DNA of 9,214 nt from a virus (Duplodnaviria; Heunggongvirae; Uroviricota; Caudoviricetes). Of this stretch, positions 1 through 9,214 are shown one piece after another. The position numbers were made by a program, and so were the translations under genes. The DNA is taken from IMG/VR virus record IMGVR_UViG_2695420793_000010; one strand, given 5' to 3'. Below the pieces are notes generated by a model that was given only the letters and a program-made list of their open reading frames with translations, was not told where the DNA came from and made no database searches. Every line of letters begins with the position of its first letter. Positions within the stretch are counted from its first letter, which is position 1.

Positions 1-112
1 TCTGAGGCAGCACCTGGCACGGCTGGGACGGAAGTCGCTGTCGTTCTCAAAATCGGTGGAGCTGCATGACAAAGTCATCGGGCATTATCTGAACATAAAA
101 CACTATCAATAA
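1..112 (+). CDS. insB: IS1 transposase InsB, C-terminal fragment (partial at window edge)
   Basis: Translation matches the same InsB C-terminus as the 125-aa minus-strand ORF at 8821..9198; stop TAA at 110..112. Confidence 0.85.
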
Positions 113-127
113 GTTGGAGTCATTACC
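1..127 (+). mobile_element. IS1: IS1 right end (partial): 3' end of insB plus terminal inverted repeat ending at 127 (…aagttggagtcattacc); element body lies left of the window
   Basis: Frame-2 translation 2..112 gives [36 protein letters not shown], the InsB C-terminus; 105..127 is the reverse complement of the IS1 terminal repeat GGTAATGACTCCAACTTATTGAT. Confidence 0.9.
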
Positions 128-186
128 CTTCTTTCCTTCTTCGAACCAAACCGTGTACACCATCCGTTATCTGCGGAGGTGAGGCT

Positions 187-402
187 ATGAAATCCATGGA
201 TAAGTTAACAACGGGCATCGCCTACAGCACCTCTGCAGGCAGTGCTGGCTACTGGTTTTTACAGTTGCTCGATAAAGTCACGCCCTCACAGTGGGCGGCA
301 ATAGGTGTGCTGGGTAGCCTGGTATTTGGCCTGCTGACGTACCTGACAAACCTTTATTTCAAGATTAAAGAAGATAAGCGCAAGGCTGCGAGAGGTGAAT
401 AA
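187..402 (+). CDS. Class II holin, phage 21 S-like pinholin (71 aa) with dual-start motif
   Basis: MKSMDK… has Met1-Lys-Ser-Met4 (antiholin/holin dual start); GGAGGT at 176..181 five nt before the ATG; 71 aa; stop overlaps the endolysin start (TAATG). Confidence 0.9.
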
Positions 403-899
403 TGCCTCCATCATTACGAAAAGCCGTTGCTGCTGCTATTGGTGGCGGAGCAATTGCTATAGCATCAGTGTTAATTACTGGCCCAAGTGGTAACGATGGT
501 CTGGAAGGTGTCAGCTACATACCATACAAAGATATTGTTGGTGTATGGACTGTATGTCACGGGCATACAGGAAAAGACATCATGTTCGGTAAAACGTATA
601 CCAAAGCAGAATGCAAAGCCCTCCTGAATAAAGACCTTGCCACGGTCGCCAGACAAATTAACCCGTACATCAAAGTCGATATACCGGAAACAATGCGCGG
701 CGCTCTTTACTCATTCGTTTACAACGTGGGTGCTGGCAATTTCAGAACATCGACGCTTCTTCGCAAAATAAACCAGGGCGATATCAAAGGCGCATGTGAT
801 CAGCTACGTCGCTGGACATATGCTGGCGGTAAGCAATGGAAAGGTCTCATGACTCGTCGTGAGATTGAGCGTGAAATCTGTTTGTGGGGTCAGCAATGA
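402..899 (+). CDS. SAR endolysin (T4-lysozyme-fold, phage 21 R-like), 165 aa
   Basis: Gly/Ala-rich N-terminal signal-anchor-release segment ([20 protein letters not shown]) followed by a lysozyme domain with E…D…T spacing; start overlaps holin stop, stop overlaps Rz start (ATGA). Confidence 0.9.
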
Positions 900-1357
900 A
901 CAGAGTAACCGCGATTATCTCCGCTCTGGTTATCTGCATCATCGTCGGCCTGTCATGGGCTGTTAATCATTACCGTGATAACGCCATTACCTACAAAGCC
1001 CAGCGCGACAAAAATGCCAGAGAACTGAAGCTGGCGAACGCGGCAATTACTGACATGCAGATGCGTCAGCGTGATGTTGCTGCGCTCGATGCAAAATACA
1101 CGAAGGAGTTAGCTGATGCGAAAGCTGAAAATGATGCTCTGCGTGATGATGTTGCCGCTGGTCGTCGTCGGTTGCACATCAAAGCAGTCTGTCAGTCAGT
1201 GCGTGAAGCCACCACCGCCTCCGGCGTGGATAATGCAGCCTCCCCCCGACTGGCAGACACCGCTGAACGGGATTATTTCACCCTCAGAGAGAGGCTGATC
1301 ACTATGCAAAAACAACTGGAAGGAACCCAGAAGTATATTAATGAGCAGTGCAGATAG
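896..1357 (+). CDS. Rz: Rz i-spanin (inner-membrane spanin subunit), 153 aa from ATG 896
   Basis: N-terminal TM helix then coiled-coil-like charged region; position right after the endolysin; ATG 896 overlaps endolysin TGA 897..899; the ORF-track start at 884 is a GTG. Confidence 0.85.
1116..1298 (+). CDS. Rz1: Rz1 o-spanin (outer-membrane lipoprotein), 60 aa, embedded in the +1 frame of Rz
   Basis: Signal peptide with lipobox-like VVGC, proline-rich mature part ([16 protein letters not shown]); AAGGAG at 1103..1108 seven nt before the ATG; wholly inside Rz. Confidence 0.8.
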
Positions 1358-1381
1358 AGCTGCCCATATCGATGGGCAGCT
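1358..1381. terminator. Perfect 10-bp inverted repeat (agctgcccat-atcg-atgggcagct) between convergent Rz and bor; candidate bidirectional terminator
   Basis: Read directly: stem 1358..1367 / 1372..1381, 4-nt loop; sits between Rz stop (1357) and bor stop (1389..1391); no clear U-tract. Confidence 0.45.
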
Positions 1382-1388
1382 CATGCAA

Positions 1389-1682
1389 TTATTGTGAGCA
1401 ATACACACGCGCTTCCAGCGGAGTATAAATGCCTAAAGTAATAAAACCGAGCAATCCATTTACGAATGTTTGCTGGGTTTCTGTTTTAACAACATTTTCT
1501 GCGCCGCCACAAATTTTGGCTGCATCAACAGTTTTCTCCTGTCCAATTCCCGAAACGAAGAAGTGATGGGTGATGGTTTCCTTTGGTGTTACTGCTGTCG
1601 GTTTGTTTCCAACAGTAAACGTCTGTTGAGCACATCCTGTAATAAGCATTGCCAGAGCGGCAGAAAACAACATTTTTTTCAT
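1389..1682 (-). CDS. bor: Bor outer-membrane lipoprotein (lambda Bor / Iss family), 97 aa
   Basis: MKKMLFSAALAMLITGC… signal peptide with lipobox LITGC; near-identical to lambda Bor as recalled; AGGA 6 nt before ATG 1682; the 113-aa ORF in the track is an upstream in-frame extension. Confidence 0.9.
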   Translation of the reverse strand: MKKMLFSAALAMLITGCAQQTFTVGNKPTAVTPKETITHHFFVSGIGQEKTVDAAKICGGAENVVKTETQQTFVNGLLGFITLGIYTPLEARVYCSQ

Positions 1683-2168
1683 CTTATTATCCTGCATTGT
1701 TAAAAACGGCAGAATCCTATGTGACAACAATTAAACGATAGTTAAATGGATTGATGAAAATTAAAACTATATAGGTGTACGCTCAGACTATTGGAGGAAG
1801 TTGGGGACACTCAGAATCCTGTGGAATGAAATAAACCGGTCTATCCGTCTATTACCCTTTTAGCTGCGCTGTATCGTCGCCGTATTCCCGTATTAACAGA
1901 GACCGTAGCCCGACGGGGAACTCCTTCTGCGCGAGTATGCGGGAATAATCAAAAACGATGCACACCGGGTTTTTACCGCGTTTATGGTTCGCGGGTTTGT
2001 CCCTCATGCTCGCCAGTCCTGTGCGGGGGTGGAAGAAACAGGACACTTACACAGATTCTTGTGGGCACGATGCTATGCCTTTCTGGATTATCCCGATGCC
2101 ATTCATGCAAGGCGTTGTATCAGACGTTCGTCAGAGCTGTCAGGCTGACGGGTCCTCCCGGTGGGGTG

Positions 2169-2200
2169 GCCTGCCACGGGGCGGGAGCGTCGCGGAAAAA
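2169..2200 (+). other. cos site core (cosN-like): acg|gggcgggagcgt|cgcgg, resembling lambda acg|GGGCGGCGACCT|cgcgg
   Basis: Candidate 12-nt cohesive-end segment at 2179..2190; lies about 196 nt before the small-terminase start, as in lambda (about 190 nt); comparison is against the lambda sequence from memory. Confidence 0.5.
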
Positions 2201-2362
2201 GGCTAGTTTTTGCATTTCCATGGCGGCGGCAGCATGTTTGGTAATTTATTGATAATTAAAAGTTATTTCTCTTTTCAGCTGTACAATATTTTTTTCTCCC
2301 TGTCATTAGACTAGTTTGCAATTAATTGAAATATATAAATAAACCTGATTTTCACCTGCCAG
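2201..2362 (+). promoter_or_regulatory. cosB-like region: IHF-consensus site (minus strand, about 2242..2254, TATCAATAAATTA) flanked by three TTTC-N-CC-type repeats (about 2215, 2294, 2351)
   Basis: Matches WATCAANNNNTTR; the repeat spacing relative to cosN mirrors the lambda R3-I1-R2-R1 layout; loose pattern match only. Confidence 0.3.
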
Positions 2363-2374
2363 ATGGAGTTGCTT

Positions 2375-2902
2375 ATGTCAAATGTGAGCGGGATCGGTGA
2401 TGCTTATTACTGGAGTGTTTTTAAAATCGCCGAGGCCTTTGGGCTTCACCGGGACACAGTAAAAAAACGGCTCCTCGCGGCCAACACTCCTGTGGCTGCG
2501 ACTGTCAGGGGGAACCCCGTTTACGCCCTGCAGCATGTCGGGCCCGCCCTGTTTAGTGTGAAGCATGAGGCAGCAGACTCTGTTCATGATCCATCCCGTA
2601 TGGAGCCGAAAGAGAGAAAGGACTGGTACCAGTCTGAAAATGAAAGGATCAAGCTGGAAAAGGAGCAGCGAAAACTCATCCCAGTTGATGAAGTAGTCAT
2701 CGTCTATTCGTCCATGAGAAAGGCTGTCGTCCAGGTTCTGGAGACAATTCCGGATGTTCTTGAACGCGATTGCGCCCTGACTCCTCAGGCCGTCGGCGTT
2801 GTACAGCAGGCCATTGATGACCTGCGATACACTCTTCAGGAAAAATCCTACGAGGCTTGTGCTGCTGAATTAATTCCTGATGAGGAAGGAGAGAGTCTCT
2901 AG
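2375..2902 (+). CDS. Terminase small subunit (Nu1-like, winged-HTH DNA-binding N-terminus); possibly NohA/NohD-like
   Basis: GGAG at 2365..2368 six nt before ATG 2375; N-terminal pattern FKIAEAFGLHRDTVKKRL…PV…GNPVY parallels lambda Nu1 IFGASIRTIQNW…PV…GNEVLY; directly upstream of the large terminase; follows the cos site. Confidence 0.7.
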   Translation: MSNVSGIGDAYYWSVFKIAEAFGLHRDTVKKRLLAANTPVAATVRGNPVYALQHVGPALFSVKHEAADSVHDPSRMEPKERKDWYQSENERIKLEKEQRKLIPVDEVVIVYSSMRKAVVQVLETIPDVLERDCALTPQAVGVVQQAIDDLRYTLQEKSYEACAAELIPDEEGESL

Positions 2903-2910
2903 GAGGAATA

Positions 2911-4221
2911 ATGGGTTTTTCATCAGCCCGAAATTTGGGAAGGGACATATCGGCAGGATTTTCCCCACCACGTCGCATGCCGATTTCGGAGGCTGTTAAA
3001 AAATTCATGCGTGTTCCCAAGGGGGCTGGTAACTCGGTGCCATGGGATCCTGAACTGACACCCTACATCATTGAGCCCATGAACTGCCTGGCATCGCGTG
3101 AATACGATGCGGTGATTTTTGTTGGTCCTGCGCGAACAGGGAAGACCATTGGTCTGATCGATGGATGGATTGTCTATACCATCGTTTGCGATCCTTCGGA
3201 CATGCTCGTTGTGCAGATGACCGAAGATAAGGCCCGCGAGCATTCTAAAAAGCGCCTCGACAGAACGTTCAGAAGCAGTGCGGCGGTAAAGAAAAGAATG
3301 AGTCCACGTCGTAACGACAATAATGTCCATGATAAGACGTTCAGGGATGGCTCGTTCCTTAAAATTGGTTGGCCCTCGGTCAACATTATGTCGTCGTCGG
3401 ATTACCGGTTTGTCGCCTTAACCGATTACGACCGTTTTCCGGAGAATATCGACAGCGAGGGTGATGGTTTCTCCCTGGCCTCAAAACGTACCACCACATT
3501 TATGTCCGCCGGGATGACTCTGGTGGAGAGCTCGCCGGGACGTGACATCTGCGACAGCAAATGGCGACGTAAGTCGCCTCATGAAGCGCCACCGACGACT
3601 GGTATTCTTTCCCTTTACAATCGTGGTGACCGCCGCCGCTGGTACTGGCCATGTCCGCACTGCGGTGAATATTTTCAGCCAGCTATGGATGCCATGACCG
3701 GCTACCGTAATGAACCGGATCCCTTTAAAGCCAGTGAGGCGGCGTATCTACTTTGCCCACACTGCAGCGGCATTATCACTGCGGAGAAAAAGCGTGAGCT
3801 CAATAGTGCAGGAGTCTGGTTGCGTGAAGGTCAGGTCATTGATCGTAACGGCAACGTTTCCGGTGAACCGCGCCGCTCCCGTATCGCCAGTTTCTGGATG
3901 GAAGGGCCAGCTGCTGCGTATCAGGCCTGGGCGCAACTGGTTTACAAATTACTGACTGCAGAACAGGAGTATGAAGCGACAGGAAGAGAAGAAACACTCA
4001 GGGCGGTTATCAACACCGACTGGGGATTACCTTATCTTCCCCGCGCCAGCATGGAGCAACGAAAAAGTGAACTGCTTGAGCAGCGGGCAGAGCCAGTTCC
4101 TTCCCGCAGTGTGCCAGATGGCGTTAATTTCCTTGTGGCGACAGTGGATGTGCAGGCGGGACGTCATCGCCGTTTTGTGGTTCAGGTACCGGAGTCGGAA
4201 GTTGCCGGACCCTGCAGATGA
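2911..4221 (+). pseudogene. Terminase large subunit, GpA family, C-terminally truncated (436 aa versus about 640 aa full length)
   Basis: P-loop FVGPARTGKT, CPHCGE…LCPHC zinc-finger-like motifs and an INTDWG…VDVQ segment align with lambda gpA up to the start of the nuclease domain; AGGAGGA RBS at 2901..2907; ORF ends where the tail-fibre fragment begins. Confidence 0.8.
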
Positions 4222-5024
4222 AGGCGCATTACAGAAATGGTGGTCTGTTCTACCGTTCTTCAAGAGACGGTTATGGTTTTGAGGAAGGCTGGGCAGAAGT
4301 TTATACCTCGAAAAATCTTCCACCAGAAAGCTACCCAGTCGGCGCACCAATCCCGTGGCCATCAGATACCGTTCCGTCTGGTTATGCCCTGATGCAGGGG
4401 CAGACTTTTGACAAATCTGCCTACCCGAAACTTGCAGCCGCTTATCCGTCAGGCGTGATCCCTGATATGCGTGGCTGGACGATTAAGGGCAAACCTGCCA
4501 GTGGTCGGGCCGTATTGTCTCAGGAACAGGACGGCATTAAATCGCACACCCACAGCGCCAGCGCATCCAGTACGGATTTGGGGACGAAAACCACATCGTC
4601 GTTTGATTACGGAACCAAATCCACGAATAACACCGGGGCGCATACCCATAGTATTAGCGGGACCGCAAATAGTGCCGGTGCGCACCAACACAAGAGTTCC
4701 GGTGCATTTGGTGGCACGAACACGAGCATTTTCCCTAATGGTTATACCGCGATTTCAAATCTAAGCGCGGGGATTATGAGCACAACAAGCGGTAGTGGCC
4801 AGACTCGTAATGCAGGGAAGACATCATCAGATGGTGCTCATACCCACTCGCTGTCCGGCACTGCTGCAAGCGCAGGCGCACATGCACATACTGTCGGTAT
4901 TGGTGCTCATACGCACTCCGTTGCGATTGGCTCACATGGACACACCATCACCGTTAACGCTGCTGGTAACGCGGAAAACACCGTCAAAAACATCGCATTT
5001 AACTATATTGTGAGGCTTGCATAA
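4218..5024 (+). pseudogene. stf: Side tail fibre protein (Stf), C-terminal fragment only (268 aa ORF)
   Basis: …[11 protein letters not shown]…[49 protein letters not shown]…[31 protein letters not shown] matches the lambda Stf C-terminal region as recalled; the N-terminal fibre shaft is absent. Confidence 0.8.
4530..4960 (+). repeat. Histidine-rich repeat units (GAHTHS / GAHAHT / GSHGHT) inside the Stf C-terminal domain
   Basis: Repeated HxH motifs visible in the translation and as reiterated ggtgc(t/a)ca(t/c)ac(c/g)cac DNA units. Confidence 0.5.
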
Positions 5025-5605
5025 TGGCATTCAGAATGAGTGAACAAGCACGGACCATAAAAATTTATAATCTGCTGGCCGGAACTAATGAATTTATTGG
5101 TGAAGGTGACGCATATATTCCGCCTCATACAGGTCTGCCAGCAAACAGTACCGATATTGCACCACCAGATATTCCGGCAGGCTTCGTGGCTGTTTTCAAC
5201 AGTGATGAGGCATCGTGGCATCTCGTTGAAGACCATCGGGGTAAAACGGTTTATGACGTGGCTTCCGGCGACGCGTTATTTATTTCTGAACTCGGTCCGT
5301 TACCGGAAAATGTTACCTGGTTGTCGCCGGGAGGGGAATATCAGAAGTGGAACGGCACAGCCTGGGTGAAGGATACGGAAGCAGAAAAACTGTTCCGGAT
5401 CCGGGAGGCAGAAGAAACAAAAAACAGCCTGATGCAGGTAGCCAGTGAGCATATTGCGCCACTTCAGGATGCTGTAGATCTGGAAATCGCAACGGAGGAA
5501 GAAATCTCGTTGCTGGAAGCCTGGAAGAAGTATCGGGTGTTGCTGAACCGTGTTAATACAACAACTGCACCGGATATTGAATGGCCAGTAGCACCTATAG
5601 GGTAA
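5024..5605 (+). CDS. tfa: Tail fibre assembly protein Tfa (193 aa)
   Basis: [54 protein letters not shown]… closely matches lambda Tfa as recalled; start overlaps stf stop (TAATG). Confidence 0.9.
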
Positions 5606-5869
5606 ATTCGTAATGATTACCTAAATACGTTATTCTTTTGTTCAAAAAGTGATTTTGCTATAGGTAGGGAGTATGTTCTTGGATTAAGAATAAAAATCGC
5701 CATGAAAGAGCTTCATGGCGAGTACATAAACGTACAAAATATGATGAAAGTAGAGTGGCGTAAGCCACTATATTAAGATATGACAATAGCGAAGAAAAGT
5801 AAATAACATTTTATGGGCGTTTAATTGTCAATTATAAAAACTAGAGTGCCCGATATTGTTTATCTTGCT

Positions 5870-5971
5870 TTAAAATAATGTACTCAAACCAAATTTTTGA
5901 GCTAAAAGCTCAAATAATATAAATGCAATGATAATGTTTAATAAGACAATTAGCTTGCTTTGTATTTTCAT
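5870..5971 (-). CDS. Hypothetical 33-aa hydrophobic peptide (MKIQSKLIVLLNIIIAFILFELLAQKFGLSTLF); speculative
   Basis: ATG-initiated ORF translated by hand from the minus strand; one predicted TM-like core; no Shine-Dalgarno; AT-rich context makes chance ORFs likely. Confidence 0.1.
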   Translation of the reverse strand: MKIQSKLIVLLNIIIAFILFELLAQKFGLSTLF

Positions 5972-6142
5972 TTCGGAATACTGTTAAGTAACTTTGATGA
6001 CACTAACAATAGATCGGAATTTTCTTAGAGTCAATGGTCACTGTTTTTGCTTGCAAAGCAAATGTTTTTGGTGGTTATAAGTTTTCTTAATATAGTCACC
6101 TATGCAACTTGTTCCTTGTGGAGATTAAAGGTTAAAATTTAA

Positions 6143-6292
6143 TGCGAAGATGGAATTATAATATATTTTTTTATAATTAATTTAACCTTAACATCGTTGC
6201 TGGCGGCATGGAAGAAATATCGGGTCTTGCTGATGTCGTGTTGGCACTTCCTTAGTGCGGTTATCGAATGGCCAGCTGTACCTGTGGGGTAA
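6143..6292 (+). pseudogene. Decayed 3' remnant of a second tfa-like gene (encodes …[32 protein letters not shown])
   Basis: About 100 nt (6190..6292) align to the 3' end of tfa (5500..5605); translated tail parallels Tfa …[32 protein letters not shown]; no in-frame ATG, upstream frame closed at 6140..6142. Confidence 0.6.
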
Positions 6293-6424
6293 AAACTTTA
6301 TATGGGTGCTATTTTTATAATAGCTGGTAAAAACTGGCCGAACTGAAATTCACTGTTGATAAAAAAGATGTGTTTGAGTGTATGTCATTGTTTTCTTAAT
6401 GGAATCCACTAGAATGCAGCGAAT

Positions 6425-6622
6425 TTAAGAAGGTGGGTTTTTATTGGAATATAAACTACAATAATGCTCAACTCGTTCGTAGAATTGTTTTTTCTTATTT
6501 TTTGGAATGCTAACCATTATATGCATTATGGGGGCGATACTTCCTGATAATTTACATGATGCATACATTGAAGCAATAAATTCAATATCATTGTCATCAA
6601 AGTTAAAGCTTTCTCCGTCCAT
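6425..6622 (-). CDS. Hypothetical small protein (65 aa), acidic N-terminus; low-confidence
   Basis: ATG at 6622 preceded by AAGGA with a 6-nt spacer; no recognisable family; sits in AT-rich DNA. Confidence 0.2.
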   Translation of the reverse strand: MDGESFNFDDNDIEFIASMYASCKLSGSIAPIMHIMVSIPKNKKKQFYERVEHYCSLYSNKNPPS

Positions 6623-6947
6623 TTCAATTCCTTATGTGTTTGGCACAACTGATGCTGTATCCCATGAGAATTTATGCAAGTTGTTATGTTTGATTTGATA
6701 TTGCAATGATAATTGTAGCTAATTGTTTTCAATTGAGTGAAAGTTTATTTCGAGTGATTAAGTCGAAAAAAAAGATTTCTCACGGTTAGTAAGCGTATTA
6801 GGTTAGTATTCAGATATGAATGGTATTAATGACTAAATTTTCAATCATATATGGATTTTTATGCTGATGAAGATGTTTTATTTGGCGATTCGTCAAGCAT
6901 CTTCACTTAAGTAATCGTATATTTTAAGAGTGCAAAAGAGAAAGGGA

Positions 6948-7050
6948 CAACGTTGCTCGCACTCTGGATTAAATATAGGGTGTTGTTAAACTGCGTTGAT
7001 ACATAATTGTACCGGATATTGAGTGGTCTGAAGTCCCAGTCATTAAGTAA
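6948..7050 (+). pseudogene. Second decayed tfa 3' remnant (…LLALWIKYRVLLNCVDT* then frameshift …VPDIEWSEVPVIK*)
   Basis: Nucleotide and translated similarity to the tfa 3' end ([11 protein letters not shown]…[10 protein letters not shown]); in-frame stop at 7004..7006 and a frame change before the last block. Confidence 0.5.
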
Positions 7051-7338
7051 TCGTTTCGTGATATGCCGCAGAAACGTTGTATGCAATAACGTTCTGCGGT
7101 TGGCTGATGCACTTTCGAGAGTGTATTGAATAATTTCAATCCGTTATTGTTTTTACGCGTAACACCATGAAAAGACTGCTTATCTGTTGGGGTATTTTTT
7201 GGGGCATATATGGGACAGAAATAGGCCACAGATAGATAGTAAGATCGAACTCAGGATGCTTTTGAAAAAATGTAACTATCTGAAAAAACCTAGAAAGCGC
7301 CAAGGAAACCACAGAATGAGAAAAAACATCTGTGAATT

Positions 7339-8622
7339 ATGGATTTCCAGTTATATTCGCTCGGCGCAGCGTTGGTGTTTCATGAAATATTTTTTCCTGA
7401 ATCATCAACGGCAATGGCGTTAATTTTGGCAATGGGAACCTACGGTGCAGGTTATGTGGCGCGTATTGTCGGAGCATTTATTTTCGGCAAAATGGGCGAC
7501 AGAATAGGGCGTAAAAAAGTGCTCTTTATTACCATCACCATGATGGGGATCTGTACCACCTTAATTGGTGTGTTACCGACCTATGCACAGATTGGTGTTT
7601 TTGCCCCCATCTTGCTGGTGACGCTGCGTATTATTCAGGGGTTGGGTGCAGGTGCGGAAATTTCCGGTGCCGGTACGATGCTGGCGGAATATGCACCAAA
7701 AGGTAAGCGCGGAATTATCTCCTCATTTGTAGCTATGGGAACTAACTGCGGAACCTTGAGCGCAACGGCAATCTGGGCCTTTATGTTCTTCATTCTCAGT
7801 AAAGAGGAACTGCTGGCGTGGGGATGGCGTATACCGTTCCTGGCGAGCGTTGTCGTGATGGTCTTTGCTATCTGGTTACGTATGAATCTGAAAGAAAGCC
7901 CGGTCTTTGAGAAGGTTAATGACAGCAACCAACCCACAGCAAAACCTGCACCTGCTGGTAGCATGTTCCAGAGCAAATCCTTCTGGCTGGCAACAGGGCT
8001 GCGTTTTGGTCAGGCGGGTAACTCCGGGTTAATTCAGACTTTCCTTGCAGGCTATTTAGTGCAGACGTTATTGTTTAACAAAGCAATTCCAACAGATGCA
8101 TTGATGATTAGTTCGATTCTCGGCTTTATGACCATTCCGTTCCTTGGTTGGTTATCCGATAAAATTGGTCGCCGGATCCCGTATATTATTATGAATACCT
8201 CCGCGATTGTGCTGGCATGGCCAATGCTTTCTATCATTGTAGATAAAAGCTATGCCCCGAGCACCATTATGATTGCACTGATTGTGATTCATAACTGTGC
8301 GGTGCTGGGATTATTTGCTCTGGAAAACATTACCATGGCAGAAATGTTCGGCTGTAAAAACCGCTTTACCCGGATGGCCATTTCTAAAGAAATTGGTGGT
8401 CTTATCGCTTCCGGTTTTGGTCCTATCCTGGCGGGTATTTTCTGCACCATGACGGAATCCTGGTATCCGATCGCCATTATGATCATGGCATATTCAGTGA
8501 TTGGTTTAATCTCTGCGCTGAAAATGCCAGAAGTGAAAGACCGTGATTTAAGTGCGCTGGAAGACGCTGCGGAAGATCAACCGCGTGTTGTAAGAGCTGC
8601 GCAACCTTCCAGAAGTCTGTAA
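7339..8622 (+). CDS. ydfJ: MFS transporter, metabolite:H+ symporter family (ProP/ShiA/KgtP-like), YdfJ-like; 5' end probably disrupted
   Basis: 427-aa ORF with MFS signature GKMGDRIGRKK between predicted TM2 and TM3 and WGWRIPF motif; aligns to ProP/ShiA starting at their W-F/Y-D-F motif, so the N-terminal segment is short; no SD before ATG 7339. Confidence 0.85.
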   Translation: MDFQLYSLGAALVFHEIFFPESSTAMALILAMGTYGAGYVARIVGAFIFGKMGDRIGRKKVLFITITMMGICTTLIGVLPTYAQIGVFAPILLVTLRIIQGLGAGAEISGAGTMLAEYAPKGKRGIISSFVAMGTNCGTLSATAIWAFMFFILSKEELLAWGWRIPFLASVVVMVFAIWLRMNLKESPVFEKVNDSNQPTAKPAPAGSMFQSKSFWLATGLRFGQAGNSGLIQTFLAGYLVQTLLFNKAIPTDALMISSILGFMTIPFLGWLSDKIGRRIPYIIMNTSAIVLAWPMLSIIVDKSYAPSTIMIALIVIHNCAVLGLFALENITMAEMFGCKNRFTRMAISKEIGGLIASGFGPILAGIFCTMTESWYPIAIMIMAYSVIGLISALKMPEVKDRDLSALEDAAEDQPRVVRAAQPSRSL

Positions 8623-8631
8623 ATCCTCAAT

Positions 8632-8662
8632 CCCTTCTCTTACCGGAGAGGGGATTTTTATT
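8632..8662 (+). terminator. Rho-independent terminator candidate after the MFS gene (cccttctc-ttaccg-gagagggg then atttttatt)
   Basis: 8-bp stem with one G-U pair, 6-nt loop, followed by a T-rich run; 10 nt after the stop codon. Confidence 0.5.
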
Positions 8663-8710
8663 CATATAACAAAACATGTAGCTTGCCATATTTAAATTTA
8701 AGGAATTGTT

Positions 8711-8805
8711 ATGGGAAATAATTTGTTATCAGCAAAAGCGACACTCCCTGTTTATGATCGTAATAACCTGGCCCCAAGAATTGTTCATTTAGGCTTTGGT
8801 GCATT
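8711..8805 (+). pseudogene. ydfI: 5' fragment of a mannitol-dehydrogenase-family oxidoreductase (YdfI/UxuB-like), cut by IS1 after about 32 codons
   Basis: [31 protein letters not shown]| matches the family N-terminus (…RIVHLGCGAFHRAHQ… in UxuB); TAAGGA RBS at 8699..8704; the frame runs into the IS1 terminal repeat at 8806. Confidence 0.6.
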
Positions 8806-9214
8806 GGTAATGACTCCAACTTACTGATAGTGTTTTATGTTCAGATAATGCCCGATGACCTTGTCATGCAGCTCCACCGATTTTGAGAACGACAGTGACT
8901 TCCGTCCCAGCCTTGCCAGATGTTGTCTCAGATTCAGGTTATGCCGCTCAATTCGCTGAGTGTAACGCTTGCTGATTACGTGCAGCTTTCCCTTCAGGCG
9001 GGATTCATACAGCGGCCAGCCATCCGTCATCCATACCACGACCTCAAAGGCCGACAGCAGGCTTAGAAGACGCTCCAGTGTGGCCAGAGTGCGTTCACCG
9101 AATACGTGCGCAACAACCGTCTTCCGGAGCCTGTCATACGCGTAAAACAGCCAGCGCTGGCGCGATTTAGCCCCGACGTATCCCCACTGTTCGTCCATTG
9201 CCGGGCAGCGACGT
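8806..9214 (-). mobile_element. IS1: IS1 (partial, continues past window end), inverted relative to the left IS1; terminal repeat ggtaatgactccaacttactgat at 8806..8828
   Basis: Terminal inverted repeat read directly; encodes the InsB C-terminal region on the minus strand; differs from the left copy at several positions. Confidence 0.9.
8821..9214 (-). CDS. insB: IS1 transposase InsB (partial; N-terminus beyond window end)
   Basis: 125-aa [40 protein letters not shown]…[13 protein letters not shown] is the InsB core and C-terminus; the frame stays open to the window edge. Confidence 0.85.

Follow-up and report, generated by a model that had tools for sequence, protein, structure and literature searches.

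The longest open reading frame (ORF) of the window, i.e., of the whole 9,214-nucleotide stretch of DNA analysed here, opens with an ATG at 7339, comprises 427 codons (7339..8622) and has the character of an MFS transporter. The question raised by this locus is why the start of such a gene appears compromised, as an earlier note on this DNA had remarked. The note had pointed to an ATG at 7339 devoid of a Shine-Dalgarno (SD) sequence, to a TGA in the same frame at 7333..7335, and to an AAGGA motif (7302..7306) preceding another ATG, at 7316, in a different frame. All these elements are present at those positions, in the sequence ...CCAAGGAAACCACAGAATGAGAAAAAACATCTGTGAATTATGGATTTCCAG... (7300..7351), and the best duplex of the 3' end of 16S rRNA has +0.2 kcal/mol for ATG 7339 and -5.4 kcal/mol for ATG 7316. 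It is regarded here as close to certain that the compromised start is explained by the right attachment site (attR) of a Qin-family defective lambdoid prophage, a junction that cuts off codons 1-28 of the gene, and that no one-base frameshift is involved. The interruption of ydfJ by Qin, mentioned in the earlier note, thus turns out to be the true cause, as seen from the empty site, the left junction, and the attP of free phages.

The truncated gene and its native form

The ORF 7339..8622 (plus strand), designated ydfJ', is a 3' remnant corresponding to codons 29-455 of an MHS-family MFS transporter gene. Aligned with the 455-amino-acid product of the intact gene over these codons, it shows a single difference, I/V at intact residue 367. 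The remnant is orthologous to YdfJ, as indicated by its MFS_1/Sugar_tr domains, its near-identity to E. coli YdfJ, and the presence of ydfI as the next gene downstream (start at 8711). Just after the ydfJ stop there is a terminator-like hairpin with a T-run (8629..8656, plus strand), consisting of a 12-pair stem followed by TTTATT. In the window, ydfJ' has lost 28 codons along with its own ribosome-binding site and the operon context upstream; the N-terminus is thus indeed shorter than in relatives, as had been noticed earlier. The native upstream neighbours rspA-rspB, located ca. 57 nt from the start codon, are absent, and prophage genes are found upstream in the window. In RefSeq the identical sequence is labelled as a pseudogene, 'MHS family MFS transporter YdfJ, incomplete; missing N-terminus'.

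The intact ydfJ of strain OkiPb01714 comprises 455 codons and begins with MTIEKHERSTKDLVKAAVSGWLGTALEFMDFQLYSLGAALVF... Orthologues were sought in one genome per species, and their translations compared; a conserved GAGAT-like ribosome-binding region lies ahead of the coding sequence in them. They are present in about 75 species of many genera of Enterobacterales, including Citrobacter, Enterobacter, Klebsiella, Raoultella, Leclercia, Kosakonia, and Serratia, and also in Salmonella enterica subsp. arizonae, and the match begins at residue 1 or a few residues from it. Residues 12-48, DL[VI][KR]AA[VL]SGWLGTALEFMDFQLYSLGAALVFHEIFFPE, are essentially invariant across these species, which points to strong purifying selection acting on the 28 codons lost from the window. 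The same invariance indicates that the native helix-1 motif is E-F-M-D-F rather than W-D-F, and that ATG 7339 corresponds to the internal Met29: YdfJ of OkiPb01714 reads MTIEKHERSTKDLVKAAVSGWLGTALEF-M-DFQLY, the native form being ...GTALEF-M29-DFQLY. The earlier note had expected the W-D-F motif, i.e., ...TGGGATTTCCAG..., which is not the native reading. Nor does alignment to intact ydfJ bear out the case that the note had set against its own proposal, a native protein starting at the equivalent of 7339 behind the same upstream sequence, for no upstream sequence is shared and the native start lies upstream of that position.

The window ORF lacks the conserved N-terminal segment ...AAVSGWLGTALEFMDFQLY of the ca. 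455-amino-acid YdfJ, i.e., the first half of helix 1. The Pfam MFS_1 profile matches the 427-residue remnant with E=4e-37, with the match starting at profile position 33, as against position 2 (residue 21) in intact YdfJ, and the hydropathy of the intact protein is continuous over residues ca. 13-46. Helix 1 was placed on the basis of these profile coordinates and hydropathy, according to which the truncation removes the cytoplasmic tail and, approximately, the N-terminal half of transmembrane helix 1. A search of the sequences of solved structures with intact YdfJ returned just distant MFS proteins (a fungal phosphate transporter and SV2A; E ca. 1e-5). The rspAB-ydfJ-ydfI cluster presumably serves L-gulonate catabolism; in the literature searched for an experimental link of rspB or ydfJ to L-gulonate, only a paper on the Haemophilus pathway was found, whose main text contains neither rspA nor rspB.

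The attachment-site junction

The boundary between phage and host DNA falls on the 11 bases TTATGGATTTC (7337..7347, plus strand), which contain ATG 7339 and were assigned as the attachment-site core (crossover region) by a four-way comparison of att sites. The core is the only block common to attR (the window and K-12), attL (LA3 and AR_0128), attB (OkiPb01714), and attP (phage Tritos), the last having one mismatch, TTATGCATTTC. It occurs once in the window, once in intact ydfJ, and at attL in LA3 and AR_0128. Its length is ambiguous, with 11 exactly shared bases and near-identity on both sides over ca. 18-19, the att of prophages at this locus having been published as 18-19 bp (PMC8112680).

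The sequence to the left of the core (7066..7336, plus strand) is the phage-derived arm of the right junction, i.e., the attP arm distal to int, and it holds AAGGA, ATG 7316, and the TGA. With the attP region of the free phages Tritos, HannyBb, mEp460_ev081, and PhiR42_1 it shares 86-87% identity, and it is unrelated to the sequence upstream of intact ydfJ. The match of Tritos to window positions 7066..7347 (86.9% identity) stops exactly at the core, after which Tritos has an int-proximal arm like that at attL of LA3, followed by int, on the opposite strand, and xis, which is the attP arrangement. The four free phages have the same arm, core, and opposite-strand int in a lambda-like order; in them the core leads into the int-proximal arm, whereas in the window it leads into ydfJ. 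The junctions of K-12, BL21, and O157 carry the same arm at ca. 93% identity. The interval 7302..7345, for which the earlier note had proposed a frameshift, thus straddles attR, with 7302..7336 being phage DNA and the core and host gene following from 7337 onward. As in attR sites of tyrosine-integrase elements, the core is found at both ends of the element and the attP of free phages lies beside the integrase gene, while int and xis are located at the opposite junction of the element, outside the window, in AR_0128 and LA3. A candidate arm-type repeat, CAACTATCTGAAAAA (window ca. 7272..7286), has a counterpart, CAACTATTTGATAAA, in the int-proximal arm of Tritos, at 2714..2728 and 2804..2818 of the Tritos piece (L006); with 87% identity and two copies only, it is suggestive only of possible integrase-binding sites.

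The empty site, the left junction, and the prophage

A search of 5426 complete E. coli genomes with window positions 6900..7700 gave matches falling into classes according to where homology begins, the latest-starting class beginning at 7333. OkiPb01714, a member of this class, is prophage-free at this site, with the gene order rspA-rspB-ydfJ-ydfI; it is identical to the window from TTATGGATTTC / TTATGGATTTCCAG and unrelated upstream. The reciprocal junction is found in LA3, which shares the upstream sequence of the window. Its ydfJ 5' end lies beside rspB and continues through ...GCGCTTGAATTTATGGATTTC, where the sequence switches to AAGAGTCATACG...; the 3' end of a tyrosine integrase gene is situated 35 nt past the switch, followed by an excisionase gene, on the opposite strand. 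In both LA3 and AR_0128 the left junction comprises ydfJ codons 1-31 beside rspB, phage DNA, and then int and xis.

Over window positions 1..8805, AR_0128 shows 100% identity. It has two copies of the core, separated by 24,431 bp, with the lost 28 codons adjoining rspB, 24.4 kb away. Between the two copies lies an element with int, xis, exo, ydfD, dicB, ydfC/B/A, dicA, dicC, hokD, rem, a Q antiterminator gene, a lysis cassette, and tfaQ, a gene content by which it can be assigned to the Qin family of defective prophages, lying between rspB and ydfJ. Present in the window are the essD/rrrD/rzpD lysis cassette, the remnant of a tail-fibre gene, and tfaQ. From the identity over 1..8805, the left junction of the window's own genome is expected to resemble that of AR_0128.

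The left-junction 5' piece of ydfJ in AR_0128 forms a 36-codon ORF composed of YdfJ residues 1-31 and KSHAC; such orphaned pieces are found at ca. 20631..20747 (piece L004) and 18491..18601 (piece L089). Located downstream of rspB and retaining the native ribosome-binding region, this ORF could be translated into a short peptide.

These data fit a model in which a phage integrated into ydfJ codons 28-31 by site-specific recombination catalysed by a tyrosine integrase. To the left of the core there is the phage arm with AAGGA 7302, ATG 7316, and TGA 7333, and to the right ydfJ from codon 29. ATG 7339, an internal methionine codon (Met29), opens the longest remaining ORF by the chance of lying within the core, and codons 1-28, the native ribosome-binding site, and rspA-rspB were left at the other end of the prophage, ca. 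24.4 kb off in the closest genome. The model predicts ...GCGCTTGAATTTATGGATTTCAAGAGTCAT... followed by an opposite-strand int at the rspB-proximal end in the window's genome, and excision that would restore GCGCTTGAATTTATGGATTTCCAG and an intact 455-codon ydfJ. Nothing contradicts it.

Comparison with published prophages at ydfJ

The feature is already known, since both the 28-codon truncation by Qin and the role of ydfJ as a phage integration hotspot have been published, and a rspAB-ydfJ-ydfI cluster split by a lambdoid phage inside a gene is textbook biology. In K-12 the ydfJ pseudogene is interrupted by the cryptic prophage Qin (Ramisetty and Sudhakari 2019, PMC6379469), with the same host gene, junction, 28-codon loss, and 427-codon ORF as in the window. 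The K-12 junction arm is ca. 93% identical to that of the window from 7080 onward. The two differ in that the window has IS1 beside the lysis genes, an iss/bor gene, and a deletion from terminase to tail fibre, and lacks pinQ, ydfK, and ynfT between tfaQ and the junction. Lambdoid prophages named PPydfJ have been described at the ydfJ locus in STEC and EPEC, with att sites set by comparison of attP, attL, attR, and attB (Nakamura et al. 2021, PMC8112680). They occupy the same locus as the window element, and the O157 junctions have the last ca. 150 nt of the arm and the core in common with it. PPydfJ prophages differ in carrying genes of type III effectors or DinI-like genes beside the junction, and the prophages often occur in clusters (PMC8112680).

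The frequency of the interrupted site in E. coli was estimated with a 301-nt probe across the empty site, the junction being counted as uninterrupted when at least 80% of the probe was covered. It is uninterrupted in 2007 of the 5426 complete genomes, leaving ca. 63% without an uninterrupted junction. The same proportion was obtained from an evenly spaced sample, in which 15 of 40 genomes begin at 7333. Among the split genomes sampled, all but a few have an rspB-side match that breaks off at the core (probe positions 187-190); most non-intact genomes are thus split at the same core and have a phage or remnant arm homologous to that of the window. The identical junction sequence recurs in hundreds of independently sequenced genomes.

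Start signals and the ORF at 7316

The AAGGA motif (7302..7306, plus strand; anti-SD duplex of -5.4 kcal/mol) is an SD-like chance feature of the phage arm. Counting both strands, the window has 373 ATGs, and for 47 of them (12.6%), several times the number of its genes, the anti-SD match equals or exceeds that of ATG 7316. The SD-ATG pairing at 7316 is therefore no better than chance, and an SD match alone is no evidence of a gene.

The 35-codon ORF opened by ATG 7316 (MRKNICELW..., 7316..7423, plus strand) begins within the phage arm and crosses into ydfJ in another frame, up to a TAA at 7421..7423; it is judged not to be a gene. Its translation is MRKNICELWISSYIRSAQRWCFMKYFFLNHQRQWR*, opening with MRKNICELWISSY..., and no Pfam match was found for it. 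In the O157-type arm, ATG 7316 is replaced by ATA and AAGGA by CAAAA. The K-12 and BL21 arms differ by R2G and I5T within the first five codons, with no synonymous change, and there the ORF stops after 19 codons owing to a change silent in the ydfJ frame. In the attP of Tritos its continuation is unrelated sequence, antisense to int and devoid of annotated features. This behaviour from arm to arm, together with the Pfam result, argues that the ORF is fortuitous, a non-conserved SD-ATG in AT-rich arm DNA. Thus the motif and the ORF that AAGGA had been proposed to serve do exist, but they are not the native start, being absent from the O157-type arm.

The TGA in the ydfJ frame (7333..7335, plus strand) belongs to the phage DNA and is kept in the arms of K-12, BL21, O157, and Tritos; therefore there is no phage-encoded N-terminal extension or fusion. 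The nearest upstream plus-strand gene, tfaQ, ends at 5605, and a consensus scan, as a weak negative, found no plus-strand sigma-70-like promoter in 6300..7500. According to a preprint, ydfJ is among the differentially expressed RNAs responding to DicC in K-12, so some transcript is made there. The remnant is most likely an untranslated or non-functional pseudogene. Judging by its start region, it would not be productively expressed, and its protein, if made, would lack half of helix 1 and hence be non-functional. For annotation purposes, the 427-codon ORF is best regarded as a 5'-truncated pseudogene rather than a transporter with an unusual start, and neither frameshift correction nor resequencing of the ydfJ' start is warranted.

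Alternative explanations

The earlier note held that ATG 7316 behind AAGGA was the native start and that one G had been lost at 7340..7342, by frameshift or sequencing error, from a gene whose protein began MRKNICELWDFQLY..., a proposal that is considered exceedingly improbable. Its arithmetic is correct, as a G inserted after TGG 7340..7342 does give ...ELWDFQLY; moreover, the SD match of ATG 7316 (-5.4 kcal/mol) is reasonable, and helix 1 of related MHS transporters contains a W-F-D-F-like motif. However, ATGGATTTCCAG is the same in the window and in uninterrupted ydfJ, and therefore no base is missing. The proposal is also at odds with the native EFMDF, invariant in ca. 75 species, with the origin of the DNA upstream of 7337 in a phage attP arm, with the occurrence of the same junction in hundreds of independently sequenced genomes, and with the O157 arm, devoid of both ATG 7316 and AAGGA. 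A sequencing error was rejected, the junction being base-identical in many independent complete genomes. That ATG 7339 is the genuine start of a 427-amino-acid transporter, as in the older K-12-style model, and that the 455-amino-acid models are over-extended is scarcely credible, even if this ORF is the longest in the window. The 28 upstream codons are conserved as protein across genera, with residues 12-28 essentially invariant, only the long form matches MFS_1 from profile position 2, ATG 7339 has no SD, and the upstream DNA of empty-site and occupied genomes diverges exactly at the att core.

It is also very unlikely that the phage arm supplies replacement signals and that a shortened but functional YdfJ (29-455) is made, with integration only partly disruptive. 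Initiation at Met29 would then be helped by ribosomes at AAGGA and the 7316 ORF, or by read-through from a prophage promoter. There are parallels in other gene-integrating phages, which carry replacement ends, and in the altered TtcA N-terminus at the Rac junction noted in a review (PMC6379469), and ydfJ RNA is detectable in K-12. Against this, the in-frame TGA 7333 excludes a fusion, AAGGA, at a distance of 33 nt, is too remote from ATG 7339 to act as its SD, and O157 arms lack the SD-ATG; the protein is deprived of half of helix 1, invariant residues included, no promoter-like site lies nearby, and the downstream ydfI is destroyed by IS1 in the window, consistent with a decaying locus. There is only a slim chance that a shorter YdfJ is translated from Met29, or that the 35-codon 7316 ORF is translated and influences YdfJ. 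If this were so, the majority of E. coli, which carry the prophage, would produce a modified transporter or a micropeptide encoded at the junction, and the gene would not be dead. The attR junction is thus retained as the explanation of the compromised start.

Other features of the window and related junctions

Both ends of the window lie within IS1 copies. Positions 1..127 are inside one copy, with an IS1A-type end (...GTTGGAGTCATTACC at 127), and 8806..9214 are inside a second, diverged copy in inverted orientation, whose transposase domain (Pfam IS1) lies at 8821..9198 on the minus strand. Comparison of 127 bases gives 7 differences between the two copies, and the 8.7-kb segment flanked by them is laid out like a composite element. 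The second copy interrupts ydfI after 95 nt (codon 32); this insertion is absent from the closest complete E. coli genomes among the matches listed, which stop at 8805.

In the region 2911..5024 the large terminase gene gpA is cut within the nuclease domain (Pfam positions 1-95 of 294) and continues as a C-terminal tail-fibre fragment with Collar and fibre-repeat domains, both pieces being labelled as partial in RefSeq. From this fusion it seems likely that the genes for head and tail were lost in a single large deletion. Immediately after the lysis cassette, on its downstream side, there is a gene for a lipoprotein of the Bor/Iss family (increased serum survival; 1389..1682, minus strand; Pfam Lambda_Bor, E=1e-30). 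The Rz-like gene (884..1357) contains, in another frame, a 60-codon ORF (1116..1298, plus strand) that has an SD-like motif and occupies the position expected of a putative Rz1-type spanin lipoprotein. The ca. 1.5 kb between tfaQ and the arm (5606..7065) contains only one annotated ORF, of 65 codons (6425..6622, minus strand), with no Pfam match; at this place K-12 has pinQ, ydfK, and ynfT, and LA3 an IS5-family element.

The K-12-type prophage/ydfJ junction is also found, with 100% protein identity, in SMXE01000224.1 (L010), labelled as a MAG of Caldithrix sp., which almost certainly reflects contamination of the bin with E. coli. In E. coli BL21(RP) (L088, NZ_CP084683.1) the prophage body is absent, and the arm and the truncated ydfJ have as neighbours an IS4 transposase fragment, a tRNA-Ser gene, and mtfA; the element has been largely deleted or rearranged there, with the ydfJ truncation remaining.
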